A program made the translations under genes and the position numbers. 64,000 nt of DNA from Syntrophales bacterium (GTDB lineage: Bacteria > Desulfobacterota > Syntrophia > Syntrophales > UBA2210), in NCBI GenBank assembly GCA_963662405.2, contig CAXXKT010000001.1, positions 1,984,001 to 2,048,000 of the forward strand. The letters run 5' to 3'. Position 1 is the first letter of the stretch. The number at the start of each line of letters is the position of its first letter. Under the pieces are notes generated by a model. That model had not been told where the DNA came from and made no database searches. It was given only the letters and a program-made list of their open reading frames with translations. Shown here piece after piece: positions 2,180 through 61,412 of this stretch.

Positions 2180-3415
2180 ATGATGGATACCGATGCGGGG
2201 AAGAGCGAGAAGAAGATGCTGTCCGAAAAAAAGATGAAGGAAATCATGACCGGCTACTACATCGAGGCTAAAACGGCCGAGCAGGCGGGGAAGAAGGTCG
2301 CCTGGATCACCAGCGGAGGACCGGTGGAACCGCTGATAGCGATGGATATCATCCCTGTCTATCCGGAGAACTACGGGGCGATGATCGGGGCATCGAAGAT
2401 GGGGGCCGATCTGTGCGCGCGGGCCGAAGAGATGGGATACAGCGGAGACCTCTGTTCCTACGCGCGGGCCGATATCGCCTCTTCTTTGGTGGACGGCGGT
2501 CCCATCGGAGGACTGCCGAAGCCCGACATGCTGGTGTGCTGTAACAACATATGCGGGACGGTCCTCAAGTGGTACGAGGTGCAGGCCCGCCATTACGACG
2601 TCCCCCTCTTTATCCTTGATACCCCCTTCTGCCACACCGAATACAGCGACGAAGCAAAGAAATACGTTCGGAAACAGATACTCGAATATGTTGTCTTCCT
2701 CGAAGAGGCGACAAACCAGCGATTCGATTATGACCGGATGGCGGAGGTTGGAAAACTCTCCCTGGAAGGGCAGCGCCTGTGGCAGGCCGTTCTCGACACC
2801 GCCATGAACAGGCCGTCCCCGATGACCTGTTTCGACGCGTTCTTTCATCTTGCCCTCATCGTCACCCTGCGCGGGACCCAGGTGGCGGTGGATTACTACC
2901 GTATGCTCCTGAAAGAGATGGAGCAGCGTGTCGCCGATGGGGTCAGCGCAATTCCGAACGAGAAGTACCGGCTCTTGTGGGACAACCTGCCGATCTGGTA
3001 CCGGATGCGGTGGCTCTCCGAGCAGTTCGCGTCCCATGACGCCTGTCTCGTGGCGGACACGTACACCACCGCGTGGTGCATGAGCCTGAAGTATATGGAC
3101 GAGACCGATTTCCTCGATTCCATGGCCGAAGGATACACCAAGTCATATCTCAACATCGGGGTTGATGGGATGATCAAGATCATTCTCGAGATGGTGGACA
3201 AATATGACGTGGACGGTTTTGTCATGCACTCCAACCGGAGCTGCAAGCCTTACTCGCTCGGCCAGTACGATATCCAGCGGGCCGTTCAGCGGGAACGGGG
3301 GATTCCCTCCGTCACCATCGAATCCCACATGGTGGACGAACGATCCTTCTCCGAGAGCCAGACGGAGACACGGATCGATGCCTTCATGGAGATGATCAGT
3401 CAGAAAAAGGGATAA
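2180..3415 (+). CDS. 2-hydroxyacyl-CoA dehydratase/benzoyl-CoA reductase family subunit (HgdA/BcrB-like)
   Basis: YPENYGA, DLCSYAR, GGLPKPD, CNNICG, NRSCK and TRIDAFMEM motifs. Confidence 0.85.
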   Translation: MMDTDAGKSEKKMLSEKKMKEIMTGYYIEAKTAEQAGKKVAWITSGGPVEPLIAMDIIPVYPENYGAMIGASKMGADLCARAEEMGYSGDLCSYARADIASSLVDGGPIGGLPKPDMLVCCNNICGTVLKWYEVQARHYDVPLFILDTPFCHTEYSDEAKKYVRKQILEYVVFLEEATNQRFDYDRMAEVGKLSLEGQRLWQAVLDTAMNRPSPMTCFDAFFHLALIVTLRGTQVAVDYYRMLLKEMEQRVADGVSAIPNEKYRLLWDNLPIWYRMRWLSEQFASHDACLVADTYTTAWCMSLKYMDETDFLDSMAEGYTKSYLNIGVDGMIKIILEMVDKYDVDGFVMHSNRSCKPYSLGQYDIQRAVQRERGIPSVTIESHMVDERSFSESQTETRIDAFMEMISQKKG

Positions 3416-23732: not shown

Positions 23733-24437
23733 ATGAAATTTTGGCAATGTGTGGTTGCAGCCCTCTTGTTGCACATGGCGATTCTGATGATCCCGATAAC
23801 GGTGACGGACATAACTCGTGTGGGAGAATTCCGGCTGGTGATCTCTGAGACGGTTTCCACTCCGTCCGTATCGGCTGTGGTACCGGCCGTAAGACCACCT
23901 CAGGTGAAGAAACCGAAATCTATCATAAAACCGAAATCCATTGTGAAACCAAAACCAAAACCGAAACCGCCTGCGAACACGCCTGAGATCAAACCGCTCA
24001 AGAGGGACAGCATATCCGAACCTGTGGAAGGCCCATCGCTTCCGGCAGCCCCCGCACCGGAGACCATTGAGGTCGGGAACACCGATCCTGTCGAGGAAGT
24101 TCCTTGTGCCGGGCCGGAGATTTCTCAGACCGCAGAGGAGCGCGAACCGGTGGAGATGTCCTTTGGTACCTCGGGAGGACCGAAATTCCTCAAGCAGGTA
24201 CAACCGGTATATCCCCGGAAGGCAAAAATGTTACGGAAGAGAGGGGTCGTAACCCTCATGCTGACCATAGATAAAGACGGAACCCTGATTGATGTAGAGG
24301 TTGTGAAAGGCGCGGGGTACGGCTTCGATGAAGAAAGCATACGGGCCGTGAAGGAATCAACGTTCATCGGCGCCCGGAAGAACGGCAGGCCAATCGCCTG
24401 TAAGGCCTTACTGCCGGTACGATTTCGATTGAGGTGA
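23733..24437 (+). CDS. tonB: Energy transducer TonB
   Basis: N-terminal TM with His, KP-rich linker, PVYP..A..G.V C-terminal domain. Confidence 0.9.
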   Translation: MKFWQCVVAALLLHMAILMIPITVTDITRVGEFRLVISETVSTPSVSAVVPAVRPPQVKKPKSIIKPKSIVKPKPKPKPPANTPEIKPLKRDSISEPVEGPSLPAAPAPETIEVGNTDPVEEVPCAGPEISQTAEEREPVEMSFGTSGGPKFLKQVQPVYPRKAKMLRKRGVVTLMLTIDKDGTLIDVEVVKGAGYGFDEESIRAVKESTFIGARKNGRPIACKALLPVRFRLR

Positions 24438-24985
24438 ATGCGGTGATTGATTTGTTTGTGAAAGGGGGGCCGTTGATGTGGCCCATCGCCCTCTGTTCCG
24501 TTATCATGGTTGCCATCATTATCCACAAGACGGTCCAGTTCACGGTATTACTCCGGCAGCTTTCATGGCCCCGACAACGAATCCGCGAACAGAGACCCCG
24601 CCATATTGCACTCCTGCTGGATGTACTCGCTGCGAAACGGGATGAGGAGGAAATCGTTCTGGCGGGGAGCAGGAATCTGAAGATCCTGGAAAGAGGGGTC
24701 GGGGCCCTTTCGCTTATAGCGGCTATTGCGCCTTTGATGGGGCTCACCGGTACGGTTCTCGGTATGATCGAGAGTTTCAGGATTATGGCTGCCTCCGGCG
24801 GAACTGCCGGTATCGGGCTTCTGGCGAAAGGCATATGGGAGGCGCTCCTGACAACGGCGGCGGGACTCCTTGTCGCCATTCCCGCGGAGATCGGCTACCA
24901 CTATCTGGAACGGCGGCTGGATGAGATATCGATTGCCATGAAGTCTCTCGTGTTACGGTTTAGAGGTGCGGACGATGCAGTTTGA
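24434..24985 (+). CDS. exbB: MotA/TolQ/ExbB proton channel protein
   Basis: KGGPLMWP, APLMGLTGTVLGMI and GIWEALLTTAAGLLVAIP motifs. Confidence 0.9.
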   Translation: MNAVIDLFVKGGPLMWPIALCSVIMVAIIIHKTVQFTVLLRQLSWPRQRIREQRPRHIALLLDVLAAKRDEEEIVLAGSRNLKILERGVGALSLIAAIAPLMGLTGTVLGMIESFRIMAASGGTAGIGLLAKGIWEALLTTAAGLLVAIPAEIGYHYLERRLDEISIAMKSLVLRFRGADDAV

Positions 24986-25373
24986 GCGAAAAAAGAGGGC
25001 TCCGATCCATACCAATATAGCCCCCCTTGTCGATGTCGTCTTTCTCCTTCTGCTCTTTTTTATGGTGACGTCTCATATCGCGCTGGACCCCTCCATCGAT
25101 ATCAGCCTGCCCCAGTCAAAGACTGCGCAGCATCATGAATCGGATCCTGTGACACTTTCCATATCGAGGGAAGGGGAGATCTTTATCGGTGGAAAACAGA
25201 TTACGATAGAAGAAATCTGCGGTGCCGTCCGAGCACATCTGCAGGGTTCCGATACGAAAACGATCAAAATAAGGACGGACAAAGATATCCCTGTGGGAAC
25301 CCTGATACGGGTGGTGGATGAGGTACGGCTTTCAGGGGCGCATGGGCTGAGCATCCTAACGGAAAGAATATGA
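24975..25373 (+). CDS. exbD: ExbD/TolR family protein
   Basis: NIAPLVDVVFLLLLFFMV motif. Confidence 0.9.
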   Translation: MQFERKKRAPIHTNIAPLVDVVFLLLLFFMVTSHIALDPSIDISLPQSKTAQHHESDPVTLSISREGEIFIGGKQITIEEICGAVRAHLQGSDTKTIKIRTDKDIPVGTLIRVVDEVRLSGAHGLSILTERI

Positions 25374-25399
25374 GAAACGAGATGAATGGGAGGTAGAAG

Positions 25400-26533
25400 A
25401 TGTCGAATAGGTCTGTATATCTGTCTGTGGTCATGAGTGTCCTGCTCGTCATTTCTGTGTTCGGATGTGACCGTTCGGACAGGGCATCGAGGCTGGCGGA
25501 AAAAAACGATACCCACAAGGCTGGGGTCACCAAGAAAAGCGGGGGGATAAATGACCCGGTCATGTCTCGGGGGAAGGCCGGCGTCCATTCGGGATTGCAT
25601 ATTTCCGGCGAGGTTCGGCAGCAACTCACCTTGCAACGAGAGGACCTTGAGCGGTTGCATGCAGCGACCACACGAACGAATGAAGTTTTACGATCGGGTC
25701 ATTATCGCGGCGCGTTTACGTACCGTGGCCCCTCTCTCAGATCGCTCCTTGAATTTGCGGGCATAGATAAAAAGAGCTCCGATTTCAACAAAGACCTTGA
25801 TCTGGTGATCGTGGTGGAAAACGGCGAAGGTGAAGAAATCGCCCTCTCCTGGGGTGAGATCTTTTATCGGAACCCCGGAGATATAATCGTTGCCGTGGAG
25901 GCCGCGCCGATCCGACCGCATCATGAAAGAGACCGCATCCCCCGGGCCTATTGGCCGTGGCTCGATCAACTTGACCGTGAAATCGGTTTCCCCAAGCTTG
26001 TCGTTGCAAATGATTTTTATTCGGATCGCTCCCTCGAAGGGATTCGGCGTATTCAGGTGATCGATCTGCACCCCGCTGTGCAGCGGAAGAAGCAGAAAAT
26101 GCTCTTCTCGCCTTCTTTTTCCATATGCGGTGCCGTGGCCAATCCGGTTACCATATCGGTTCTCCCCGAGAAAAACTATGACACTGTTGTGTTCAAGGAA
26201 GTGGGGGACGGACAGGGATATCACGGGTTAAAAACGTTCGGGGGTGTGCCCCTCGTCGATCTGCTTGAACAGGCAGGGATGAAGGGTGATCTTGACACGG
26301 CCGTTGTCATCTCCGCCCCGGATGGGTACAGAACGACCCTCTCATATGGGGAGCTGTTCCTGTCGAACGGGGGGAAGGATATCCGTATCGGTGACACAAT
26401 GGGAGGTGAATATCTCACCAATAGAGGCAAATTCTTTGTGTTATTGCCGGACGACCTTTCCGCCGACAGGTCCGTCAAGGCCATTCAGGAAATCAGAGTG
26501 GTACCGCTGAGCCGAGAGAATCCCTCTGAGTAG
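25400..26533 (+). CDS. Lipoprotein with two molybdopterin-oxidoreductase (SUOX-fold)-like domains
   Basis: Lipobox VFGC; twice G.V...LT....L / GxxLxxLLExAG / (D/E)GY..xLSxGE / R.vk.i..I.V pattern. Confidence 0.65.
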   Translation: MSNRSVYLSVVMSVLLVISVFGCDRSDRASRLAEKNDTHKAGVTKKSGGINDPVMSRGKAGVHSGLHISGEVRQQLTLQREDLERLHAATTRTNEVLRSGHYRGAFTYRGPSLRSLLEFAGIDKKSSDFNKDLDLVIVVENGEGEEIALSWGEIFYRNPGDIIVAVEAAPIRPHHERDRIPRAYWPWLDQLDREIGFPKLVVANDFYSDRSLEGIRRIQVIDLHPAVQRKKQKMLFSPSFSICGAVANPVTISVLPEKNYDTVVFKEVGDGQGYHGLKTFGGVPLVDLLEQAGMKGDLDTAVVISAPDGYRTTLSYGELFLSNGGKDIRIGDTMGGEYLTNRGKFFVLLPDDLSADRSVKAIQEIRVVPLSRENPSE

Positions 26534-26542
26534 ACGAGATCC

Positions 26543-27307
26543 ATGGAAAACGATGTACTGTTTATCAAGAACTGGATGATGGCGGCATGCGGCTTCTATC
26601 TGCTGTCGAGCCTTGCCTATCTTGTGGGTCGGAAACGCATAGCGGTTATATTGCTTGTCACCGGGTTGCTGTCCAATGGTGTTGCCCTCGTCGGCAGGGG
26701 ATATATCGAAAAAGCCTGGTATCCAGCCCTCATGGTGCCTGAGCTGTTTGTCCTTCCCGCGGCCATGGCCTTGACGATCGGTTTCCTGTTCAAGCGGCAA
26801 AGGGTCATCGAGGGCAGAGTGGCGCTTATTCCCTTTGCTGCCTGTTGTTGCGTAACGATGCTTCTGCCCGTTGAAGCAGCGCTCCCCTGGGTTAAACAGC
26901 AAACCGCCTCGGCCGCCCTCTTTTTCCTCACCGAAGCCCTGAGTTGCGCCTTATTGGTGATCGCCGGCGCCTGTGCATGTGCGTCTCTCGTTCCGAGGAC
27001 CGACAACAGTGTAATATCCTATAACGGGCTGGTCCTCTGGGGTTTTCTCGCCTTTACGCTCTGCCAGATATCGGGAGCCGTCTGGGCATATCTCGGGTGG
27101 TCATACCCGTTTTCATGGAGTCCACGGCATTTGACCAGCGCTTCCCTCTGGTGCCTGTATGCCGCTCTTATCCATGCCCATTTCACGGGGATACAGGAAC
27201 GGCTGAAGGCGATCCTGACCGCTTTTGGTATCATTCCAATCACATATATGGTCTATCATCATGAGATAGTCACACTCCTGCAGGTGGTATCGGCGAGGTT
27301 CACATGA
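26543..27307 (+). CDS. CcsA/ResC-like (cytochrome c assembly family) membrane protein
   Basis: Multi-TM; SGAVWAYLGWSYPFSWSPRH..W.LYA..IH resembles the WWD domain. Confidence 0.7.
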   Translation: MENDVLFIKNWMMAACGFYLLSSLAYLVGRKRIAVILLVTGLLSNGVALVGRGYIEKAWYPALMVPELFVLPAAMALTIGFLFKRQRVIEGRVALIPFAACCCVTMLLPVEAALPWVKQQTASAALFFLTEALSCALLVIAGACACASLVPRTDNSVISYNGLVLWGFLAFTLCQISGAVWAYLGWSYPFSWSPRHLTSASLWCLYAALIHAHFTGIQERLKAILTAFGIIPITYMVYHHEIVTLLQVVSARFT

Positions 27308-28047
27308 ACCGGTTCATTCGATTTCTGACCCGTATGGAAACAGGTTTTTTCCTGTTGATCGTTGCGTCGGCACTGTTATTGACGGGGGGCATTATAGCCG
27401 ACGTGCATGACACGTCGCTCAGGGCATTAAATTTTCTCACCTTTCAGAAATGGTTTCCAAAACACTCCATGAGACCCCTCCTGTATGTGTGGATATTGCT
27501 GCTTTTCGGCATTTTTTTTCTTCTTGCCGTCAACACGTTTCTCTGCACGGTTTCCTATGTGAGAAACATGTCGAGGAAGGGACTGTCGGCGAGGAGATGG
27601 GGGATTGTTCTGTTCCATTGCTGCTTTTTGATGTTTCTCTCGGGACATTTTCTGTATGGATTTACGGGAATCTGTGAAAAAGTGATGGTTGAAGAAGATA
27701 TCCCCTGCACGATCCCTGCCCTCGGTCTGTCCCTTGTCCCCTTCGCGGTTGAAAAGGGTGTCCTGTCCGTTTACGGGCAAGAAGTCCCCGCGGCGGTAAA
27801 GGCGGGGATCACGGTGTCGGATGAAAGGGGCGGGGAGACGACAATACATCCGGCAACGCTGAGACCGAAGCGCGCATTGGGATACACCGTTCATATCTCC
27901 ATGAAAGATAAAGCCCTTTCTCATTCGCAGGTCGGCATCATCGTGCGCAAGCAATACGGTCTCGACCTTTTGATTGGAGGGGGGATCACCATGCTGATGG
28001 CCATGGCGCTCTTCCTGCCGAGCGTGTTTCGTTCCCGTGGCCGTTAG
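27304..28047 (+). CDS. ResB/CcsB-like membrane protein (short)
   Basis: LLAVNTFLCT and WGIVLFH..F...L.GH TM pattern, periplasmic segment, final TM; ATGA overlap. Confidence 0.6.
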   Translation: MNRFIRFLTRMETGFFLLIVASALLLTGGIIADVHDTSLRALNFLTFQKWFPKHSMRPLLYVWILLLFGIFFLLAVNTFLCTVSYVRNMSRKGLSARRWGIVLFHCCFLMFLSGHFLYGFTGICEKVMVEEDIPCTIPALGLSLVPFAVEKGVLSVYGQEVPAAVKAGITVSDERGGETTIHPATLRPKRALGYTVHISMKDKALSHSQVGIIVRKQYGLDLLIGGGITMLMAMALFLPSVFRSRGR

Positions 28048-28163
28048 TCTTTGCCGTCCGCCGTTATGGCCTGGATCATCGGAAGAGCGCATTCTGTTTT
28101 GAGCCGTGATTCACTTCGCAATGTCGTTGACCATCATACCGGAACATGGTAAAAACCACGAAT

Positions 28164-29045
28164 ATGGAGAAAGAACTTCTCACCACGAAAGAACTGGCGG
28201 GTTTTCTGCGGTTCAACGAGAAGAAGATCTACCAACTCGTCAGAGACAGTGGTATCCCCCATGTCAAGATTGCCGGGAAGTGGTTGTTCCCCCGGCGGCA
28301 TGTCCTTCGCTGGATAGACGAACAGGTGCAGAGGGAGAAGGATGTCCTGATTGTCGGGAGCGACGATGCCCTCATGACGAGGCTCGTTTCCCTCTATTCT
28401 CAGGAAAATTTCCCCGAGTCCCAGGCCTTCTACTCGTCCGTGGGAAGCCTGAAGGGAATCCAGTCTCTGATGCGGATGAAGGGGCAGGCCTGCTGCACCC
28501 ATATCCTGGATATCGAGACAGGCGTGTATAACCTTCCCATCCTCGAGAGGATGCTTTCACCTCAGAGATATGTGGTCATTCACCTCTGGTGCCGGGAGCA
28601 GGGACTGATCGTGGCGAAGGGGAACCCCCTCGGGATAAAGACACTCGAAGATATTGCGGAAAAAGGGGCGCGATTCATCAATCGGAATGTCGGTTCAGGG
28701 ACGCGGGTCCTCATCGACTATCTGATGAAAGAAAGAGGACTCGACGGACGAGAGATTACCGGTTTTACTACTGAACAAGACAGCCACATCGGGGTGGCGC
28801 AGAGGGTCTTCTTCGGAGAGGCCGATGTCGGTGTGGGAATCGAGTATGTGACGCACCTCCTCGGTCTTGACTTTATCCCCCTCAGGGAAGAGAACTTCGA
28901 TCTTGTCATCCCCGAGGCGCTCTGGTCCACGGTCCCCATCAAACGCTTTGTCTCCTATCTGGACCCCGCACGGATCAAGGGACTCTCTGCAAATCTGCCG
29001 GGGTACAACCTGAAAGATACGGGAAAGCTGGCCTTCCAAAATTGA
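28164..29045 (+). CDS. Excisionase-type HTH_17 + PBP_like (molybdate/tungstate-binding) transcriptional regulator, TaoR-like architecture
   Basis: LLTTKELAGFL..IYQLV..GIPHVKIAGKWLF; VGSLKGI, REQGLIV..GNP, FINRNVGSGTR and LDFIPL.EE.FDLV motifs. Confidence 0.85.
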   Translation: MEKELLTTKELAGFLRFNEKKIYQLVRDSGIPHVKIAGKWLFPRRHVLRWIDEQVQREKDVLIVGSDDALMTRLVSLYSQENFPESQAFYSSVGSLKGIQSLMRMKGQACCTHILDIETGVYNLPILERMLSPQRYVVIHLWCREQGLIVAKGNPLGIKTLEDIAEKGARFINRNVGSGTRVLIDYLMKERGLDGREITGFTTEQDSHIGVAQRVFFGEADVGVGIEYVTHLLGLDFIPLREENFDLVIPEALWSTVPIKRFVSYLDPARIKGLSANLPGYNLKDTGKLAFQN

Positions 29046-29073
29046 TCCTCGAAGGGATCGAGTGAAAAAAAAG

Positions 29074-29102
29074 TTGCTTTCTCCTGTCGATTGGATTAGC
29101 AT
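29074..29102 (+). promoter_or_regulatory. Putative sigma70 promoter for leader 1
   Basis: A-tract, TTGCTT (29074), 17-bp spacer, TAGCAT (29097). Confidence 0.6.
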
Positions 29103-29131
29103 CCCTCCGAATCTGGGAGGTGAGTAAGGTC

Positions 29132-29206
29132 ATGATGACGATTGTACGGTACGATTCTTACTGGTGGTGGCAAAACAACATAGGGAGTCGTCCGTCCGCA
29201 GGCTGA
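29132..29206 (+). CDS. Tryptophan-rich attenuator leader peptide 1 (MMTIVRYDSYWWWQNNIGSRPSAG)
   Basis: TGGTGGTGG at 29162-29170; GGAGG upstream; followed by an intrinsic terminator before the ligase gene. Confidence 0.85.
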   Translation: MMTIVRYDSYWWWQNNIGSRPSAG

Positions 29207-29228
29207 TGCCAGCAACAACCGGAAACCG

Positions 29229-29264
29229 AAGGCCGTGGGCAGGCAGTGCTCGCGGCCTTTTTTT
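29229..29264 (+). terminator. Attenuator terminator 1
   Basis: AAGGCCGTGGGCA-GGCAG-TGCTCGCGGCCTT 13-bp stem (2 G-U pairs) plus T7; lies in the 5' leader. Confidence 0.88.
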
Positions 29265-29297
29265 ATGGTGAATCAAGATACTGTGAAGGAGCATACG

Positions 29298-30590
29298 ATG
29301 GATCAGACATTCATGCCGAAGATCAAGGCAGAGAAAGAACTTCAGGCACTCCAGCTTGAGGGGCTCAAATGGACCGTTGCCCATGCCTATCAGGGGTCGG
29401 ATTTCTATCGCCGACGGTTCGATGAGGCGGGGGTGAAACCGGAGGACATCCGAACCCTCGATGACCTGCGCAGGCTCCCCTTGGTCACCGCCCAGGACCT
29501 TCAGGAGCAGTACCCGTGGCCCCTCCGATCGGTTCCCTTCGATCAGATCGTTCGCCTCCACGCCTCCTCGGGGACGACGGGGAAGCGGAAGGTGATGATC
29601 TACACGGCGCGCGACATCGACGACTGGGCAAACATGTTTGCCCGCTGCTACGAGATCGCCGGCCTGACGCGGGAGGACCGGATTCAGATCTGTGTCGGGT
29701 ACGGAGTCTGGACCGCCGGTGTCGGTTTCCAGCTTGGGTGTGAGCGGTTCGGTGCCCTCGCCGTCCCTGCCGGACCGGGGAATATGGAGATGCAGATGCA
29801 GTTCCTCGAGGACTTCCAGCCCACCGTCATCTGCGCGACGGCATCCATGGGGCTCCTGATGGCCGAGGAGGTCGAGAAGAGGGGATTGAAAGACAAGATC
29901 AACGTCAAGAAGGTGATATTCGGGGCGGAACGTTCCAACGACGCCATGCGGGAGACCATCAAGGGCCTGCTCGGCGCGGAGCAGACCTTCGACATCCCGG
30001 GCCTCACGGAACTGTACGGACCGGGGACCGGCCTGGACTGCGAACACCACACCGGCATCCACTACTGGGCCGATTACTACATCATGGAACTCCTTGATCC
30101 CGATACACTCGAACCGGTCTCCGACGGTGAGATCGGTGAGATGGTCTATACGACCCTCCGCAAGGAGGGGGCGCCCCTGATCAGGTACCGTTCCCGTGAC
30201 CTGACGCGGTTGATCCCCGGCACCTGTCCCTGCGGGTCGATCTTCCCGCGGCACGACCGGCTGCTGGGGCGGTCGGACGATATGTTTATCATCCGGGGGG
30301 TCAATATCTATCCCGGCCATATCGACGAGATCCTCTCGGGCCAGGAGGGGATCGGGACCGAGTACCAGATACATCTCGATCGGCGGGATGACGGAAAGGA
30401 CTACATGACGGTACGCATCGAACGGGTCGAGGGAAACCGTGCCGACGACGACAGCAGGATCGCCTCCCGGATCGAGAGCGCTGTCAAGAAGGGGATTATG
30501 GTAAGCGGGAAGGTGGAGATCGTCGATTATCACGCTCTCCCGAGGACGGAGCGTAAGTCGAAGCGTCTCTTTGACCACCGTGATGAATAA
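29298..30590 (+). CDS. Phenylacetate-CoA ligase family protein (proposed indole-3-acetate CoA ligase)
   Basis: RLHASSGTTGK, GLTELYGPG, PLIRYR, GRSDDMFIIRGVNIYP motifs of PaaK. Confidence 0.92.
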   Translation: MDQTFMPKIKAEKELQALQLEGLKWTVAHAYQGSDFYRRRFDEAGVKPEDIRTLDDLRRLPLVTAQDLQEQYPWPLRSVPFDQIVRLHASSGTTGKRKVMIYTARDIDDWANMFARCYEIAGLTREDRIQICVGYGVWTAGVGFQLGCERFGALAVPAGPGNMEMQMQFLEDFQPTVICATASMGLLMAEEVEKRGLKDKINVKKVIFGAERSNDAMRETIKGLLGAEQTFDIPGLTELYGPGTGLDCEHHTGIHYWADYYIMELLDPDTLEPVSDGEIGEMVYTTLRKEGAPLIRYRSRDLTRLIPGTCPCGSIFPRHDRLLGRSDDMFIIRGVNIYPGHIDEILSGQEGIGTEYQIHLDRRDDGKDYMTVRIERVEGNRADDDSRIASRIESAVKKGIMVSGKVEIVDYHALPRTERKSKRLFDHRDE

Positions 30591-30603
30591 ATGTGAAAAA
30601 AAC

Positions 30604-30632
30604 TTGCTTTCCGGGATAAATTGCTTTAAAAG
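30604..30632 (+). promoter_or_regulatory. Putative sigma70 promoter for leader 2
   Basis: A-tract, TTGCTT (30604), 17-bp spacer, TAAAAG (30627); shares GTGAAAAAAA..TTGCTTTC with promoter 1. Confidence 0.5.
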
Positions 30633-30662
30633 CGGAAAATCAACCGTGTGGATGGAGACGAG

Positions 30663-30737
30663 ATGAAACCGGTCAACAACCTTTCGACAAACTGGTGGTG
30701 GTGCGAAATAACAGGGAGAGGTCTGTTCGCCGTGTAG
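30663..30737 (+). CDS. Tryptophan-rich attenuator leader peptide 2 (MKPVNNLSTNWWWCEITGRGLFAV)
   Basis: TGGTGGTGG at 30693-30701; GGAG RBS; contains the antiterminator strand GGTCTGTTCGC. Confidence 0.88.
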   Translation: MKPVNNLSTNWWWCEITGRGLFAV

Positions 30738-30760
30738 ATCAGGACATTATGCAATTACAG

Positions 30761-30795
30761 AGGCCGTGAACAGATCGTGTTCACGGCCTTTTTTT
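30761..30795 (+). terminator. Attenuator terminator 2
   Basis: Perfect 12-bp stem AGGCCGTGAACA-GATCG-TGTTCACGGCCT plus T-tract upstream of iorA. Confidence 0.9.
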
Positions 30796-30834
30796 GTAAA
30801 AATCTGCGGTACAACAGGTGAAATGGAACAAACG

Positions 30835-32664
30835 ATGAAAAAGAAGATTCTGATGGGAAATGAGGCGATCGGACGGGGACTGATCGAAGCGGGGTGCACG
30901 CTCATCTCCTCCTATCCGGGGACGCCGGCCTCGGAGATCCTGGAGTCGGCCGTTACCTTTGCCGGGGACGCCCCCCGGCCCGTCCATATCGAGTGGTCGA
31001 TCAACGAAAAGGTGGCCTATGAGGTCGCCCTGGGAAACAGCTCTTCGGGGAAACGCTCCGCCGTCGCCATGAAACAGGTGGGACTCAACGTGGCCTCCGA
31101 TCCCTTCATGCGGTCTGCCTACCTGGGGGTGACGGGAGGGATGGTGGTGGTGGTCGCCGACGACCCCGGTCCCCACAGCTCGCAGACGGATCAGGACAGC
31201 CGGTTCTTTGCGCAGTTCGCGCGCATCCCGGTCTTTGATCCGTCGAATCCCGCCGAGGCGAAGGAGATGGTGGAACGGGCCTTCGAGCTCTCGGAGCGGT
31301 ACGAGATCCCCGTGATGCTCAGGCCGACGACGCGGGTCTGTCACGCCCGGCAGGGGGTGGCCCTCGAGAAACCGCAGGAGATCGAACGCCGGGCCCATTT
31401 CAAGAAGGACCCGTCCCGCTGGGTCGCGACGCCCCAGTTTATCCCGGCCCTCCACCGGCGGCTCAATGCCACGATCGACGAGATAGCCGGTCTCGAGGAG
31501 ATGTATCCTTCCCGTATCGCCGGGAGCGGATCGTCACACATCTGCATCATTTCGTCGGGGGTCGCCTGCGCCAACATCTACGAGATCCTGGACGATATGG
31601 GGCTCCTGGGAACGATCGATCTCTTCAAGGTCGATCTCCCCTATCCCCTCAACCGCGACTTCATCGAGGCGATCAATGCCGGATACGAACGAATCCTCGT
31701 TGTGGAGGAGACCTACCCCACCATCGAGATGCAGCTCGCGAACCGGTCGATCAGGGGGCGGACCCTGAAGGATGTCCCCGACTACGGCGAGCTGACCTCC
31801 GACGTGATCGAGAAGATCCTCAGACAATTTCTGGATGTCCCCGGCGCACCCGCGGGAGATACGAAAGAGGCGGGGGGCATCAGGCCGAGCCTCTGCCCCG
31901 GCTGTCCCCACCGGGCCGCCTTCTACGCGATCAGGACCACCTTTCCGAAGGGGATCTTCCCCAGCGATATCGGCTGTTACACCCTGGGGATGAATTTCGG
32001 GGGTGTCGATACGTGCCACTGCATGGGGGCCTGTATCAGCCAGGGGGCGGGATTCTATCACGCCCACGCGGCGGACGGTCCCGATTGGCCCACGGTCGTT
32101 GTCACCATCGGCGATTCGACCTTCTTTCACGCGGGGATCCCGGGGCTCGTCAATGCCGTCTTCACCGGGGCCCGGTTCATCCTCGTGATCCTCGATAACG
32201 CGACCACCGCCATGACGGGGAACCAGCCCACCCCGCAGGTGGGGCTGATGGCCGACGGGACGCCGGGACATACCGTCTACATCCCCGATCTGGTCAGGGC
32301 GAGCGGGGTGAAATTTCTCGAGGAGTGCGATCCCTACGACCTGGAGGCCTTTACCGTCCTCCTGAGAGAGGCGGATCGGTTCTGCCGGAGCGACGAAGGC
32401 GGGGTGGCGGTGATCATCGCGAAGCACCCCTGCATCATGGACCGGAAGGCGCGGGAAAGCCAGAAACGCTACCGGGTGACGGTGACCGACGAATGCACGG
32501 GGTGCAAGATCTGCATCAAGCGGTTCGAGTGTCCGTCACTCGTCTTTGACGAAGACGCGGAAACGGTATTTGTGGATGAGAACACCTGTATCGGGTGCGG
32601 CGTTTGCGAGACGGTCTGCCCCGTGGGTGCGATTGAGATAGCGGAAATCGGAGGTGAGGCGTGA
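30835..32664 (+). CDS. iorA: Indolepyruvate:ferredoxin oxidoreductase alpha subunit
   Basis: LMGNEAI, YPGTP.SEI, NEKVA.E, MKQVGLNVASD, CPGCPH, DIGCYTLG, GDSTFFH and two C-terminal ferredoxin motifs. Confidence 0.95.
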   Translation: MKKKILMGNEAIGRGLIEAGCTLISSYPGTPASEILESAVTFAGDAPRPVHIEWSINEKVAYEVALGNSSSGKRSAVAMKQVGLNVASDPFMRSAYLGVTGGMVVVVADDPGPHSSQTDQDSRFFAQFARIPVFDPSNPAEAKEMVERAFELSERYEIPVMLRPTTRVCHARQGVALEKPQEIERRAHFKKDPSRWVATPQFIPALHRRLNATIDEIAGLEEMYPSRIAGSGSSHICIISSGVACANIYEILDDMGLLGTIDLFKVDLPYPLNRDFIEAINAGYERILVVEETYPTIEMQLANRSIRGRTLKDVPDYGELTSDVIEKILRQFLDVPGAPAGDTKEAGGIRPSLCPGCPHRAAFYAIRTTFPKGIFPSDIGCYTLGMNFGGVDTCHCMGACISQGAGFYHAHAADGPDWPTVVVTIGDSTFFHAGIPGLVNAVFTGARFILVILDNATTAMTGNQPTPQVGLMADGTPGHTVYIPDLVRASGVKFLEECDPYDLEAFTVLLREADRFCRSDEGGVAVIIAKHPCIMDRKARESQKRYRVTVTDECTGCKICIKRFECPSLVFDEDAETVFVDENTCIGCGVCETVCPVGAIEIAEIGGEA

Positions 32665-33167
32665 AACAGCAGATCATTATCAGCGGAAGGGGAGGGCAGG
32701 GCGTCCTCTTCGTGACGCGTCTTCTCGCCGAGGCGGGGTTGGCGGCGGGGGCCGATGTCCTGACATCGGAGACCCACGGCATGGCGATGCGCGGGGGGAC
32801 CGTGGTCGCTCACGTCAAGGTCGGCGCATTCAAGAGCCCCCTCATTCGGATGGGGAGGGCGGATGTGGGCCTCTTCCTGACGGATGCCAATATCACCATC
32901 CACGGCGACTTTGTCGGGCCGGATGGCCGGCGTATCGTCAATACGGGAAACACCGGCGCATACGAGGGGATCGACGCGACGGCCATGGCCAGGGAGCTCG
33001 GCTCTCTCCTCGCCACGAATCTGGTCCTCCTCGGGTTTGCCGTCCGGAAGGGGGCCCTCTTCTGCGATGAAGAGGTCATGCGAAGAGTTATCACAGAAAC
33101 ATCTCGTCCCCGACAGGTCGAGCTCAATCTCAAGGGGTTCGAGAGGGGGTTGCAATTATCCGTATAA
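32661..33167 (+). CDS. iorB: Indolepyruvate:ferredoxin oxidoreductase beta subunit
   Basis: GRGGQG and SETHGMAMRGG motifs; GTGA overlap with iorA. Confidence 0.92.
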   Translation: MKQQIIISGRGGQGVLFVTRLLAEAGLAAGADVLTSETHGMAMRGGTVVAHVKVGAFKSPLIRMGRADVGLFLTDANITIHGDFVGPDGRRIVNTGNTGAYEGIDATAMARELGSLLATNLVLLGFAVRKGALFCDEEVMRRVITETSRPRQVELNLKGFERGLQLSV

Positions 33168-33186
33168 CAAAAGGAGGGTTATATAT

Positions 33187-34209
33187 ATGAGAGTACTATG
33201 CAAAACAATCGTAGTGTGTGCCGTTATGGCCACGGTCTGTATGGCGGGCGTTGTGCCCGCGTCGGCGGGGTCGACGACGCTTTCCTATGCGAACTTCCCC
33301 CCCGCCCCCACCTTTCCCTGCGTCCAGATGGAACGGTGGAAGGGGGAGGTTGAGAGACGGACGGATGGCGCCCTCAAGATCAACACCTTTCCCGGCGGGA
33401 CGCTCCTCGGGGCGAAGAACATGTTCGACGGGGTCGTGGCGGGACAGGCCGATATCGGCTGCTTTGCCATGTCCTATCATCCCGGTCGCTTCCCCGTGGT
33501 CGAGGCGATCGACCTCCCCCTGGGGTGGCCCAACGCGACGGTGGCGAGCCTCTCGCTCCTCGATCTCTTTGAGAAGTACCGGCCCGCATCATTCGGGAAG
33601 GTCAAGGTCCTGACTCTGTTCACCTGCCCGCCGGCCAATGTCATGTCGATCGATCCGGTGCGGACCCTGGCGGATCTGAAGGGGATGGAGATCCGGGCGG
33701 CCGGTACCGGCGTCAAGGTCTTCGAACTCCTCGGGGCGAGTCCCATCGGGATGCCCCAGTCGGACGTCCCCGACGCCCTCCACAAGAAGGTGATCAAGGG
33801 GATGGCCTCGTCCCTCGAGGTGATGAAGGATTTCAACTATGCCGAGTACTGCCGGTACATTACGATGACCAATCTCCAGGTGGTGACCTTTGCCGTGGTG
33901 ATGAACCGTGACCGCTGGGACTCTCTCGCTCCCGAGGTTCAGAAGGTTCTCGACGACCTGTGCCGCGAACAGACGGAGTGGACGGGGCGGTATGTGGACG
34001 CGCACGTTGATGAGGCCGTTGCCTGGTCGAAGGAAACGTACACTGTTGAGGTGATCGAGTTCGACGCCGCAGGGAAGGCAGAGATGAAGAAGAGGCTCGA
34101 ACCCCTCGTGAACGGATACATCGAACGGGTCGGCTCGAAGGTGCCCTCAAAAGAGATCATCACGGATGTCATGAAGTTCCAGGATATCTATGCCAAGAAA
34201 TATCGGTAA
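33187..34209 (+). CDS. dctP: TRAP transporter substrate-binding protein
   Basis: Signal peptide; FPGGTL, PGRFP, DLKGMEIR and VVMNRDRWDSL motifs. Confidence 0.9.
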   Translation: MRVLCKTIVVCAVMATVCMAGVVPASAGSTTLSYANFPPAPTFPCVQMERWKGEVERRTDGALKINTFPGGTLLGAKNMFDGVVAGQADIGCFAMSYHPGRFPVVEAIDLPLGWPNATVASLSLLDLFEKYRPASFGKVKVLTLFTCPPANVMSIDPVRTLADLKGMEIRAAGTGVKVFELLGASPIGMPQSDVPDALHKKVIKGMASSLEVMKDFNYAEYCRYITMTNLQVVTFAVVMNRDRWDSLAPEVQKVLDDLCREQTEWTGRYVDAHVDEAVAWSKETYTVEVIEFDAAGKAEMKKRLEPLVNGYIERVGSKVPSKEIITDVMKFQDIYAKKYR

Positions 34210-34219
34210 GAAAGCGGGA

Positions 34220-34729
34220 ATGAGGACTATGAGACACCTTGTCGGATACCTTGACCGTTCGGTGCGCTTCCTGAACGGCATCCTGATGGGAACAGCCGGT
34301 ATCTTCCTTGTGGCGATGGTGCTCCTCGCCTGCGCGAACGTAGTGTGCCGGGGTTTCAGTGTGCCCGTGAAGGGGACCTTCGAACTGATGGGGCTTTTTG
34401 GTGCCGTCGTGGCCGCATTCGCCCTGGCCGCGACACAGCTCCAGCGGCAGCACATCGCGGTCGATGTCCTGGTCAATTCCTTTCCAAAGGGGGTCAGGCG
34501 TATCCTGAGTACCCTCAACTACCTGATCGGGGCGGCCCTCTTTCTGCTGGCCGCCTGGCAGACCGGGGTCCTGGCGACCAATCTCTGGAAGGTCCATGAA
34601 CTCTCCGAGACGCTCCGGATCATCTATTTCCCCTTCGTCTACGCCGTCTCGTTCGGGTGTGTGGTGATCGCCCTGGTCCTGATCATTGAACTCTTAAAGA
34701 TTCTCAGCGGAGAGGAGGAAGGGACATGA
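34220..34729 (+). CDS. dctQ: TRAP transporter small permease
   Basis: 4 TM; NVVCR, GTFEL, HIAVD. Confidence 0.88.
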   Translation: MRTMRHLVGYLDRSVRFLNGILMGTAGIFLVAMVLLACANVVCRGFSVPVKGTFELMGLFGAVVAAFALAATQLQRQHIAVDVLVNSFPKGVRRILSTLNYLIGAALFLLAAWQTGVLATNLWKVHELSETLRIIYFPFVYAVSFGCVVIALVLIIELLKILSGEEEGT

Positions 34730-36030
34730 GCGTTACCTGTATCGGCCTCGCCGGTATCGTCATTCTCCTCTTTCTGCTCCTCTTCCTGGGGATGCCCGTG
34801 GGATTCACCATGGCCGCTGTCGGTTTCGGCGGGATCTGGTACCTCATCTCCTTCAAGGCGTCTGCGGGGATGGTCGGGGCGGAACTGTGGAACACCTTTT
34901 CCTCGTATGGTCTCACCATGGTCCCCCTCTTCGTCTTTATGGGGCAGATCTGTTTTTATTCGGGGCTCAACGAACGGCTCTTCCGGGCGACCCACACCCT
35001 GACGGGGCATATCCGCGGGGGGCTCGCCATGGCCACGATCTTCGCCTGCGCCGGTTTTTCGGCTATCTGCGGCTCCAACACGGCAACGGCGGCGACCATG
35101 ACCTCCGTCGCCCTCCCCGAGATGAAGAAGTACCGGTATCATCCGGACCTCTCCGTCGGGTCGATTGCCTGCGGTTCCACGCTCGGGGTGGTCATCCCCC
35201 CCAGCGTGGTCCTCATCCTGATCGGCCTGTACACGGGGCAGTCGATCAGCAAGCTCTTCTACGGGGGGATACCGGCGGGACTCCTCCTCGCCGCCTCCTT
35301 CATGCTGACCATCGTTATCCTGTGCAGGATCAATCCCCAGTGGAGCCCGCTCGGCGAGAGGCGGTCCATGAGGGAGAAGATGGCCGCCCTCCCCGGTTTT
35401 CTGGAGACCATTCTCCTCTTTGCCCTGGTCATGGGGGGACTCTACGCGGGGGTCTTCACCCCGACGGAGGCCGGGGCCGTGGGGAGCTTTCTGGCCCTTG
35501 CCATCAGCCTGGTCAGGAGGACACTGACCTGGCAGGGGTTCAGGGCGGCCGTTGTCGATACCCTCCAGGTATCCTGCATGGTCTTCGTCATCATCGCCGG
35601 GGCGGTTATGTTCAGTCGATTTCTGGCCCTTACCCGGATCCCCTTCGATATCGCCGACTGGGTCGCCGCCCTGCCGATCCCGCCGTTTGCCATCTTGGGC
35701 GTCATATTCGTGATCTATGTGATCGGTGGGGCCTTGATGGACGCCCTCGCCCTGCTCCTGATCACCATCCCCATCTTCTTCCCCGTCGCCGAGAAGCTCG
35801 GGTACGACCCGGTCTGGTTCGGCGTGATGATTACCATTATCACCACGCTGGGCGCCGTGACGCCCCCCGTGGGGGCCTCGACCTATGTGGTGGCTGGCAT
35901 GGCGGAGGGGATCGGGTTGGGGGGTGTCTTCCGGGGCGTTCTCTACTTTCTCCCGGCCTACATCCTGTGTATCATACTCCTGATGGTGGTCCCCGAGATC
36001 ATCACCTACCTGCCGGGCCTGGTTCGGTAG
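34726..36030 (+). CDS. dctM: TRAP transporter large permease
   Basis: PLFVFMG, GGLAMAT, GSTLGVVIPPS, TPTEA and TPPVG motifs. Confidence 0.92.
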   Translation: MSVTCIGLAGIVILLFLLLFLGMPVGFTMAAVGFGGIWYLISFKASAGMVGAELWNTFSSYGLTMVPLFVFMGQICFYSGLNERLFRATHTLTGHIRGGLAMATIFACAGFSAICGSNTATAATMTSVALPEMKKYRYHPDLSVGSIACGSTLGVVIPPSVVLILIGLYTGQSISKLFYGGIPAGLLLAASFMLTIVILCRINPQWSPLGERRSMREKMAALPGFLETILLFALVMGGLYAGVFTPTEAGAVGSFLALAISLVRRTLTWQGFRAAVVDTLQVSCMVFVIIAGAVMFSRFLALTRIPFDIADWVAALPIPPFAILGVIFVIYVIGGALMDALALLLITIPIFFPVAEKLGYDPVWFGVMITIITTLGAVTPPVGASTYVVAGMAEGIGLGGVFRGVLYFLPAYILCIILLMVVPEIITYLPGLVR

Positions 36031-39408: not shown

Positions 39409-40108
39409 ATGAAAGCGTATAAGACAAATAACTTTTATCAGGTTTACGGAATGACTGAAACAGGACCGAAGGGTATGACCTTGGCTCCGAGAGACCAACT
39501 CCGGAAAGCCGGTTCCATCGGCTGTATCGGCAGTTATGGGTGCAGCATGAGATTAATGAACAGTGATGAGGTGGAAGCTCTTCCCGGTGAAGTAGGTGAG
39601 ATTTATCTCAAGACCGATAGTGTGATAACAGGTTATTATAATGATCCTCAGGCAACGGCAGCCGCGTTTCACAATAGGTGGTACAAGTCCGGTGACGTGG
39701 CCCGCATGGATGAGGACTGGTTATCTATTCATTGCGGATCGGACGAAGGACATAATTATCACCGGTGGTGAGAATATGTATTCCAAGGAAGTTGAGGACG
39801 TGATCCGGGAACATCCTGAAATCGCCGATTGCGGTGTCATTGGGGTTTCCCATCCTGACTGGGGTGAAACGGTGGTTGCGGTTATTGTGACGGTTCCCCG
39901 GGCACACCTGACCGCTGATATCATTTCCGCGTATCTGAAAGACAAATTGGCAAGGTATAAGATTCCGAGACGATATGAGTTTGTAGACGAATTACCCTAT
40001 ACCCCTTCCGGTAAGATTATGAAATTCAAGCTTCGTGAAACCTTTTCCAGGTCAGCTCGAATGTTTGGTGAGTGTATGGGTCAAGATGTCGGCGCCGCGA
40101 ATCTTTGA
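39409..40108 (+). pseudogene. Truncated, frameshifted acyl-CoA synthetase (AMP-binding) C-terminal fragment
   Basis: YGMTET, GEIYLK, WYKSGD in one frame; DRTKDIIITGGEN, LARYKIP, SGKI in another; N-terminal half absent. Confidence 0.85.
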
Positions 40109-58713: not shown

Positions 58714-58789
58714 TGGCGTCCCCACGGGGAGTCGAACCCCGGCTGCCGGCGTGAAAAGCCGGTGTCCTAGGCCACTAGACGATGGGGAC
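58714..58789 (-). tRNA. tRNA-Glu (anticodon TTC)
   Basis: GTCCCCATCGTCTAGTGGCCTAGGACACCGGC-TTTTCAC-GCCGG..GGTTCGACTCCCCGTGGGGACGCCA; 76 nt with encoded CCA. Confidence 0.96.
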
Positions 58790-59925: not shown

Positions 59926-61412
59926 GCGTGTCCAGACAAGGACGCATAATCCAGTCGGTGAAAGTCCGACCGAGGCTAAAAGACTCAGGGCCTCGTAGCT
60001 TGGAAGGTGCCGTGGCGCGAAAGCAAGACGGTAAAGCCCTTCGACAACATTCTTTGAAAGGAGGATGCGCAACGTACCAGGTTGTAACGTGCAGTGAACG
60101 TAGACGTAGCCTCGTTACACGCATTCCGGTGGCCGAGATGGTCGATGACGTGCGAAGGCAGCAAGAGATGGCGGTGATGAGTCGTATACGCTATTTCTCA
60201 CCGGCGGGGTATCAGCGGCGACATGGTATGAAGGATTATGCGGAAACTGGAGAAGCCTTCGACGCCCGTCGGAGAAACCTCGACGAGGAGTTCCGGCCTA
60301 TAACCTTGAGTGGGAAGTGGCGGGAAAGGCGTCAGGGTGGCGGATCGGGTCGTAGTACTTTTGATCTGTGTGCAGCAAAACGCACAGGGAGGGAAGGCCC
60401 CGGACCGGTAGACATTCCGTTTCGGCAAAGCGAGGCACGGGTGAGATGACAAAGACGCCCATCAGTGTGCAGGAGCTGCGCCGGCGGATTTATCGAAAGG
60501 CGAAGTCTGAGAAAGATCATCGCTTCTGGGGGATCTTCGTGCATGTGACGAAGATCGAAGTGCTTGCAGAGGCATACCGGCTGGCAAAGAGGAATGGCGG
60601 CGCTCCGGGTATCGACGGACAAAGCTTCGAAGACATCGATGCGGCGGGCGTGGAAACATTCCTCCAGACGATACGGAATGACCTCATTGCAGGCGACTAC
60701 AAGCCGCAAAGGAATCGTTTTGTGGAGATACCAAAGGGAAACGGCAAGACCCGCACGCTTCAGATACCGTGCATCAGGGATCGCGTGGTACAAGGTGCAC
60801 TGAAATGGGTGCTCGAAGCGATCTTCGAGGCGGATTTCTGCCCGAACTCCTATGGGTTTCGACCGAAACGATCGCCGCACCGTGCCCTTGCGGAAGTCCG
60901 GAGGAGCATTCTTCGGCGGATGAACATGGTGATTGATGTTGATCTATCCAAGTACTTCGACACGATCAGGCATGACGTTCTGTTGGAGAAAATAGCGCGG
61001 CGGGTCCAAGACCCGCAGGTGCTGCACCTTGTGAAGTTGATATTGAAAACAACGGGGAAAATCGGCGTTCCGCAAGGAGGGCCGTTCAGTCCCCTGGCTG
61101 CCAATATCTACCTGAGCGAGGTTGACTGGTACTTCGACGGCATACGGCGCAAGACGGCGGAAGGGGAGTTCGAGGCGGTAAACTATCATCGGTTTGCTGA
61201 TGATATCGTAATCACCGTAAGCGGCCACCATACCAAGCGAAGCTGGGCGCAAAGAGCCCTGCAACGACTCTGTGAACAGATCGAGCCCTTGGGCGTCAGT
61301 CTGAACATGGAGAAAACGAAGGTGGTAAACATGCTTGACGGCGGCGCCTTTGGATTCCTCGGGTTTGACCTCCGGCGGATATTGAACCGTGAAAGGAACC
61401 GGCATTACATTT
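59926..61412 (+). mobile_element. 3'-truncated group II intron
   Basis: 5' GCGTGTCCAGACAAGGACGC; domain-I-like GTCGGTGAAAGTCCGAC hairpin; about 520 nt of RNA before the RT ORF; no domain V/VI seen. Confidence 0.75.

Follow-up and report, generated by a model that had tools for sequence, protein, structure and literature searches.

The trpL leader of Escherichia coli and Salmonella (Rfam Trp_leader RF00513) is a short open reading frame (ORF) with tandem Trp codons, set in RNA whose segments pair as 1:2, 2:3 or 3:4 and followed by a terminator before the first gene; its stop codon is positioned so that the terminating ribosome covers segment 2. Two leaders sharing this layout are present in a 64,000-nucleotide stretch of DNA from a Syntrophales bacterium, hereafter the window (G000:C1:1984001-2048000 of this 3.8-Mb genome). 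One precedes a gene for a PaaK-like AMP-forming aryl-acetate coenzyme A (CoA) ligase, here called paaK; the other precedes an operon of iorA and iorB, encoding the subunits of indolepyruvate:ferredoxin oxidoreductase (IOR), and dctP, dctQ and dctM, encoding a tripartite ATP-independent periplasmic (TRAP) transporter. Both leaders are probably ribosome-mediated attenuators of the trpL type, which sense charged tRNA-Trp and control genes for the salvage of indoleacetate to tryptophan. They differ from trpL in that a sequence or covariance-model match to it is absent, in having three to four Trp codons rather than the two of E. coli trpL, in controlling a ligase gene and the iorA-iorB-dctPQM operon instead of anthranilate-pathway genes, and in that four copies in this genome form a regulon.

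The chemistry proposed here has a precedent in Methanococcus maripaludis, in which aryl acids are reported to feed aromatic amino-acid synthesis through IOR (Porat et al., cited in PMC4162585); in both cases an aryl acetate would pass by way of aryl-acetyl-CoA and an aryl pyruvate to the amino acid. The present locus is distinguished by its bacterial host, by the dedicated TRAP importer and ligase, and by a tryptophan-specific regulatory signal that points to an indole substrate. Synthesis of tryptophan from indoleacetate by rumen bacteria was reportedly described by Allison and Robinson in 1967.

Uptake of indoleacetate by means of a binding protein and its activation by a CoA ligase are combined in the iaa cluster of Aromatoleum, where IaaM is the binding protein and IaaB the indoleacetate-activating ligase (excerpt of PMC8360864). 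That cluster degrades the indole ring via benzoyl-CoA-type intermediates. None of those genes is found at the present locus, where regulation by Trp starvation speaks for synthesis. IaaB is presumably PaaK-like. For the transporter, the closest described proteins are Dde_0634 of Desulfovibrio (Oleidesulfovibrio) alaskensis G20 (structures 4nap, 4pgn and 4pgp) and Desal_3247 (4n6d), both of which share a full-length fold with the DctP of the window.

Tandem-Trp leaders and a proposed tryptophan regulon

An earlier note on this DNA had described, ahead of each unit, a leader of 24 amino acids with WWW at residues 11-13 and an intrinsic terminator; sequence inspection, ORF scans and hairpin scans all agree with that description (Table 1). 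The Trp codons of both leaders are three consecutive TGG, a Shine-Dalgarno-like GGAG/AAGG lies 5' of each ORF, and the region has no terminator-like hairpin stronger than these two terminators. The two leader regions can be aligned with each other through an A-tract, a TTGCTT box, the Trp codons and the terminator. No Rfam family matches the leaders, with no match at gathering threshold in the window, and a covariance-model match to RF00513 is absent from positions 29040-30840 even at E values up to 10.

The note further gave each unit its own promoter; candidate boxes can be read 5' of both leaders and align with each other, and site 1 is kept as TTGATT-17-TAGCAT 5' of the paaK leader in two related loci (L005 and L009). 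In a third, L032, the -10 box and adjoining upstream sequence of site 1 are present, and its printed stretch begins within the -35 box. Both sites fall below the threshold of a consensus promoter scan of the window, which lists neither; it is plausible that they function as promoters.

The sequence TGGTGGTGG occurs 31 times on the two strands of the whole 3.8-Mb genome, and at only four of these sites does WWW in a short ORF stand before a strong terminator (-21 to -26 kcal/mol). The window leaders account for two, and of the others one lies before trpE and one before trpB2. The leader MTQTTSEQHNYWWWRISEERFVCR is directly 5' of a complete trpEGDCFBA operon, and the leader MAYGTEDSRFFWWWRVCIDLST is directly 5' of the TrpB-like gene trpB2. 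The same device thus fronts genuine tryptophan-supply genes, and its meaning is therefore calibrated within the organism. Absence of trpEGDCFBA, which the earlier note had proposed to check, was not what the genome revealed; because the complete operon is retained, the ligase/IOR/TRAP route would be a supplementary salvage and not a replacement. A prephenate-dehydrogenase-like gene follows trpA (L002 12860-13624), and a canonical PaaK gene (TIGR02155, 635 bits; L003 6802-8103) lies 3 kb from trpB2 on the other strand.

A second genome scan covered mini-ORFs with amino-acid runs 5' of sites with a hairpin and T run. Runs of amino acids other than Trp before terminators were mostly noise in this genome-wide scan, which gave no Phe or Tyr leader of comparable support; no convincing leader of either kind stands beside the genome's other ior and paaK paralogues. 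The scan also revealed a repeated mini-ORF, LTIHHH(R/S)(V/A)(S/N), about 100 nt before a hairpin and T run at several sites (G000:C1 near 158479, 299384, 306424, 2644654 and others).

Conservation of the leaders in related loci

Homologues of IorA were collected from one genome per species, giving 61 loci; nearly all, at 59-84% identity, belong to metagenome genomes of Syntrophales type (Syntrophaceae, Smithellaceae and others), and a few are distant. With many contigs cut, the synteny counts are lower bounds: at least 34 loci have a same-strand paaK upstream of iorA, and at least 35 contain dctP (32 downstream of iorB, two inverted, one upstream). Among the 55 loci in which the start of iorA is present and preceded by 150 nt or more of sequence, a full leader with a run of at least three Trp residues and a terminator heads the iorA operon in 37 loci, mostly of Syntrophales, in accord with the conservation that the earlier note had looked for. 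The leader and terminator lie within 330 nt of iorA in 33 of these and 270-350 nt further away in three (L010, L012 and L036); in the remaining locus, L056, a WWWW leader precedes dctP at the head of a rearranged dctP-dctM-paaK-iorA operon. Four additional loci (L018, L019, L045 and L048) have a degenerate W-rich leader.

The leader peptides belong to at least six unrelated sequence families, whose sole common feature is the run of three to four Trp residues; examples are ...LSTNWWWW..IPGRGLFTA, ...NLWWWRSSHKGSGVRV, ...YATAWWWIMTSSGLRLVH and ...LTFWWWQSINKRGKTVRYLQEF. In two Smithella-type loci (L010 12717-12855 and L011 12627-12765, both on the minus strand) dctP and dctM are inverted and detached from iorAB, and a separate WWWW leader and terminator precede them; the design of this leader is nearly that of the one ahead of iorA in the same locus. 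Because the detached genes carry their own leader, the TRAP transporter is considered an independent member of the regulon and not a passenger.

It could be supposed that the leaders are chance mini-ORFs beside ordinary terminators or small-RNA genes, with no sensing of tryptophan, and the missing Rfam match and the weakness of the promoters by consensus would suit such a view. It is nevertheless hardly credible, as all four WWW-plus-terminator sites in 3.8 Mb precede Trp-linked genes, the W run persists in 37 of 55 loci despite changes in the remainder of the peptide, and the leader accompanies the transporter in rearranged operons.

A quick maximum-likelihood tree of IorA unites the 53 Thermodesulfobacteriota-type rows, including the window, in a single clade, whose long branch has full support and which stands far apart from the two other IorA paralogues of the genome. 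Every major subclade contains leader-bearing loci, and the leaderless ones fall into a group of six, a pair and a lone locus; this clustering suggests an old leader with a few losses. The tree omits L050, L055, L057, L058, L061, L062 and L064 (partial, split or stop-containing IorA match), and L044, whose upstream region is missing, is labelled leaderless in it by default. Beyond this clade, a homologue of DctP is present in 102 of 401 sampled genomes from the other families of the phylum. In 38 loci around such homologues (L065-L102; 46-67% identity to the window DctP), paaK is nearby in 16 and iorA in six, the ligase often occurring without iorAB; the ligase-TRAP pair may be an older unit under other regulation.

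RNA structure and proposed mechanism

Folds of single leaders give a hairpin enclosing the Trp codons and the terminator, and RNAalifold recovers both from 17 aligned iorA/dctP leaders, the first as a 1:2 hairpin; in the same alignment the terminator has compensatory changes at two pairs (G-C to A-U and C-G to U-A). Segment 1 (consensus GAACAGA, 5' of the Trp codons) resembles segment 3. Segment 2 of the iorA leader, GGTCTGTTCG, resembles the 3' arm of the terminator and is complementary to GAACAGATC (30768-30776) in its 5' arm and loop, so that the arm and loop have segment 2 as an alternative pairing partner. Segment 2 begins 18 nt 3' of the Trp codons, and the stop codon follows 5 nt after it.

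The 2:3 helix is 92% paired in the 17 iorA/dctP leaders, as against 28-45% when the segments are slid, and 92% paired as against 31-49% in the small sample of five paaK leaders, which has two compensatory pairs; the candidate antiterminator of the paaK leader is GTCCGC/GTGGGC. When 40 leaders are folded without the 3' arm of the terminator, 6-17 bases of the 5' arm pair upstream (-12 to -26 kcal/mol). The antiterminator fold of the iorA leader has an energy of -18.7 kcal/mol (shuffle z -2.2), and strong z-scores are confined to this leader and those closely related to it (-2.2 to -4.2) and to the trpE leader (-3.7). All three pairings (1:2, 2:3 and 3:4) accord with the classical trpL model; the four-segment pairing, the antiterminator helices and the compensatory pairs of the terminator thus lend substance to the attenuator layout that had been claimed in the earlier note.

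It is proposed that when tryptophan is plentiful the ribosome would reach the leader stop codon and cover segment 2, upon which the 3:4 terminator would form and transcription would end before the ligase gene or iorA. With charged tRNA-Trp in short supply, the ribosome would stall at the three Trp codons and cover segment 1; segment 2 would then be available for pairing with the terminator's 5' arm, and RNA polymerase would read through. The DctPQM transporter would import indole-3-acetate (IAA) or a close indole acid, which the PaaK-like ligase would convert to indoleacetyl-CoA; IorAB with reduced ferredoxin would carry out the reductive carboxylation of indoleacetyl-CoA to indole-3-pyruvate, and one of the genome's many aminotransferases would complete the conversion to tryptophan. 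Class I/II aminotransferases have 14 matches elsewhere in the genome, and none is linked to the ligase and ior genes in the loci examined. The proposed chain of import, activation, carboxylation and transamination is coherent, each part having a precedent. The ligase unit, the iorAB-TRAP unit, trpEGDCFBA (de novo synthesis) and trpB2 (salvage of indole) would together make up a tryptophan-starvation regulon of four units.

Transporter, substrate and direction of the proposed pathway

The fold of DctP was compared by means of an alignment-based model (pLDDT 88), and the protein is closest to two Desulfovibrio proteins, Desal_3247 (4n6d; E 2.7e-108, Z 42.7, 51% identity) and Dde_0634 (4nap, 4pgn and 4pgp; E ~2e-98, Z 39.1, 47% identity). 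Binding proteins of TRAP systems for aromatic acids, coumarate and 4-hydroxyphenylacetate among them, come next. The comparison with solved TRAP structures that the earlier note had called for thus places DctP close to Dde_0634 in overall fold. Dde_0634 is described as binding IAA in passages of PMC9543091 and PMC9973260 that cite Vetting et al. 2015, and IAA is among the ligands of the DctP family in the relevant part of PMC10443332. From sequence and model, DctP belongs to a small group of TRAP binding proteins that includes Dde_0634, and an indole acid is its predicted ligand.

A broader pathway has been considered, in which the attenuators are true Trp sensors, the transporter imports indole-3-pyruvate, indolelactate or several aryl acids, and the ligase and IOR serve the assimilation of Phe, Tyr and Trp, with Trp, the costliest product, as the only signal. 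The range of aryl pyruvates accepted by IOR enzymes is in keeping with this, as is the occurrence of paaK-dctPM without iorAB in other families of the phylum (paaK in 16/38 loci, iorA in 6/38). The structure 4pgn is presumed to hold indolepyruvate. A tolerant pocket is suggested by chains of identical sequence deposited as 4pgn, 4pgp and 4nap, the last of which is given with a D-amino acid in the relevant part of PMC10443332. Import of indolepyruvate, however, would make the ligase and IOR needless or counter-productive under Trp starvation, yet these two stand most consistently behind the leader. Two further iorA and two further paaK paralogues, all leaderless, would be available for other aryl acids, and a Phe- or Tyr-rich leader of comparable support is absent from the genome scan; the broader pathway is accordingly regarded as unlikely, while deserving some weight.

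The paralogues (iorA at 34% identity; paaK at 40-44%, one of them scoring 635 bits on TIGR02155) all lack a leader, and because of this the attenuated set looks like a specialised paralogue group. Induction by Trp starvation alongside trpEGDCFBA and trpB2 fits tryptophan supply and would be hard to square with breakdown.

The genes could still be catabolic, as IorAB and PaaK are usually annotated: Trp would be converted via indolepyruvate and indoleacetyl-CoA to indoleacetate with a yield of ATP, the TRAP system would serve export or uptake, and the leader would be opposite in sense or would respond to free tryptophan or indole in the manner of TnaC. TnaC is equally a peptide of 24 residues with its key Trp at position 12 (W12, D16 and P24), and acts through Rho-dependent termination. 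Stalling of ribosomes making TnaC by free L-Trp offers a precedent (portion of PMC8429421). The three to four tandem Trp codons, the intrinsic terminator and the 1:2/2:3/3:4 layout are nonetheless the design of the genome's own trpEGDCFBA leader. TRAP systems, moreover, are importers. A TnaC-type sensor of free tryptophan was rejected as unlikely because the terminator is intrinsic and the residues after the W run are unrelated among orthologues and free to vary in number (0-16 to the stop codon), unlike a nascent-peptide sensor with fixed contacts. A catabolic role is on these grounds very improbable.

The anabolic role claimed in the earlier note is thus supported by the conserved leaders, by the shared control with trp genes and by the kinship of DctP, and those of its predictions that computation can address were all borne out; the substrate and the reductive direction we infer.

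Observations that weigh against the proposal

Several observations count against salvage of indoleacetate under trpL-type control, and are considered together. With respect to the RNA, the 2:3 helix of the iorA/dctP leaders is nearly invariant and has no changes on both sides (n = 17); the antiterminator of the window paaK leader is no better than shuffled sequence (z +0.93), and antiterminator z-scores across the 40 leaders are mixed (mean -1.0).

With respect to conservation, no leader is found in 14 of the 55 evaluable iorA loci. These include three distant loci (Methanothrix, Thermoplasmata and Sumerlaeota), two in which the head of the operon lies beyond the contig end (L026 and L039), and five of a Desulfobulbaceae-type clade with an ABC transporter in place of the TRAP genes (seen in L042 and L053). 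In L042 (8450-10761) and L053, ABC transporter genes of the branched-chain type lie behind iorAB, with paaK after them. Conservation on the paaK side, also proposed in the earlier note, extends to the nearest relatives only: the leader is present in 3 of 32 evaluable paaK loci (L005, WW; L009, WWW; L032, WW; ligases 85-91% identical). A homologous leader with one Trp codon in L014, counted besides these three, is degenerate; its terminator and antiterminator are kept (3244-3380; …CCWRRR), and it may be a decaying or retuned attenuator. In L009 (4289-4426) the stop codon of the paaK leader comes directly after the third Trp codon. The 38 DctP loci of the other families contain one WWW leader (L073, same gene order) and one WW leader (L075). 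The gene association is phylum-wide, but the attenuator is a clade-level invention largely confined to the Syntrophales-type clade.

With respect to function, IOR and AMP-forming ligases are reversible, and regulatory logic is therefore the sole guide to the direction of the pathway. The full trp operon makes the route dispensable, and the proteins behind the leaders contain no less Trp (0.97%) than the long ORFs of the genome (0.97%). Dde_0634 shares only 47% identity with DctP, a similarity of overall sequence and fold. In profile searches the ligase scores 406.8 bits on TIGR02155 (cut-off 646.3), short of equivalog level; IorA scores 642.8 bits on TIGR03336 over its full length (cut-off 650.9), and the best score of IorB is 172 bits on NF004916 (cut-off 227).

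Gene set and operon layout

Genes were assigned through Pfam and NCBIfam/TIGRFAM profile searches of the window proteins and through comparison with the PDB, and the domains found bear out the identities given in the earlier note (PaaK-family ligase, IorA, IorB, DctP, DctQ and DctM; Table 1). Membership of the ligase in its superfamily is clear from AMP-binding (PF00501) and AMP-binding_C_2 (PF14535) domains and from its match to the PaaK structure 2y27 (E 2.7e-105), and IorA contains POR_N, TPP_enzyme_C and 2x[4Fe-4S] domains. Because the genes from iorA to dctM overlap or lie 19 nt apart, and a hairpin and T-run scan finds no terminator-like site between them, iorA-iorB-dctPQM is considered one operon.

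Table 1. Positions of the leaders, terminators, promoter-like sites and genes of the locus, and of the two other tryptophan leader regions of the genome (window coordinates unless another locus is named)
Feature	Position	Strand	Description
Promoter-like site 1 (candidate)	29074-29102	+	TTGCTT-17 nt-TAGCAT behind A-tract; by sequence reading only
Leader ORF 1	29132-29206	+	24 codons, peptide MMTIVRYDSYWWWQNNIGSRPSAG; WWW codons 11-13 at 29162-29170
Intrinsic terminator 1	29228-29264	+	Hairpin 29228-29260, 14 pairs (8 G-C); T7 29258-29264; -25.5 kcal/mol
paaK, PaaK-like AMP-forming aryl-acetate CoA ligase	29298-30590	+	430 aa; ATG at 29298
Promoter-like site 2 (candidate)	30605-30633	+	TTGCTT-17 nt-TAAAAG behind A-tract; aligns with site 1
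Leader ORF 2	30663-30737	+	24 codons, peptide MKPVNNLSTNWWWCEITGRGLFAV; WWW codons 11-13 at 30693-30701
Segment 2, iorA leader	30720-30729	+	GGTCTGTTCG; last leader codons, encodes conserved G-L-F
Intrinsic terminator 2	30759-30795	+	Hairpin 30759-30791, 14 pairs (7 G-C); T7 30789-30795; -22.9 kcal/mol
Terminator 2, 5' arm and loop	30766-30776		GTGAACAGATC; alternative pairing partner of segment 2
iorA, IOR alpha subunit	30835-32664	+	609 aa; ATG at 30835
iorB, IOR beta subunit	32661-33167	+	168 aa; PF01558; 4-nt overlap with iorA
dctP, TRAP solute-binding protein	33187-34209	+	340 aa including signal peptide; PF03480
dctQ, TRAP small membrane subunit	34190-34729	+	PF04290
dctM, TRAP large permease	34726-36030	+	PF06808; TIGR00786 324 bits, above cut-off
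trpE leader region	G000:C1:2089077-2089260 (L002 6078-6260)		WWW leader, then two successive terminator-like hairpins; operon L002 6285-12838
trpB2 leader region	G000:C1:784476-784590 (L003 2478-2600)		WWW leader and terminator, then second hairpin and T run; gene L003 2663-4024, stand-alone

A gene for a regulator with HTH_17 and PBP_like domains (28146-29045, +) lies immediately 5' of leader 1. Further upstream (23733-28047) are TonB-ExbB-ExbD genes and genes for a molybdopterin-oxidoreductase-domain protein and a cytochrome-c-assembly-like protein, with no visible tie to Trp genes. Downstream, two overlapping ORFs (39409-40108, +) with the end of an AMP-binding domain and AMP-binding_C look like a fragmentary or frameshifted acyl-CoA synthetase gene. 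The window also contains a tRNA gene (58717-58789, -) and a match to a group II intron domain (RF02003, 110 bits; 59952-60092, +) with ORFs downstream.

Significance

Leader-peptide attenuation, the aryl-acid route and an IAA-binding TRAP protein are each already known singly; new is their combination, in which iorAB-TRAP and the ligase, through a conserved Trp attenuator, join the trp operon and trpB2 in a starvation regulon. A full-text literature search found no paper tying a Trp attenuator or leader peptide to ior, paaK or TRAP genes, although subscription journals and supplementary files may contain one; tryptophan is not treated in the consulted part of PMC545781.

Genes for IorAB, PaaK-like ligases and TRAP partners, whose products act reversibly or have no assigned substrate, are routinely annotated as genes of aromatic degradation. 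A conserved Trp-starvation switch is direct evidence, at the level of sequence, that this clade would work towards tryptophan, and it points to indole acids as the substrate; the locus is also a clear case in which attenuator leader peptides may assign a function to genes that do not look biosynthetic, and an ambiguous annotation becomes a testable physiological claim. We give an even chance to the wider proposition that Syntrophales control up to four attenuated units as one tryptophan-starvation regulon, rebuilding tryptophan from the indole and indoleacetate of their neighbours, and that the leaders set direction and substrate for an IorA clade and a TRAP/ligase family across Thermodesulfobacteriota that are now annotated as degradative. 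If this is true, metabolic models of syntrophic and sulfate-reducing anaerobes would change, as salvage can meet apparent tryptophan costs and auxotrophies; a cross-feeding link from amino-acid fermenters would become predictable, and syntrophs would be rebuilding tryptophan from its two main fermentation end-products, indole and indoleacetate.

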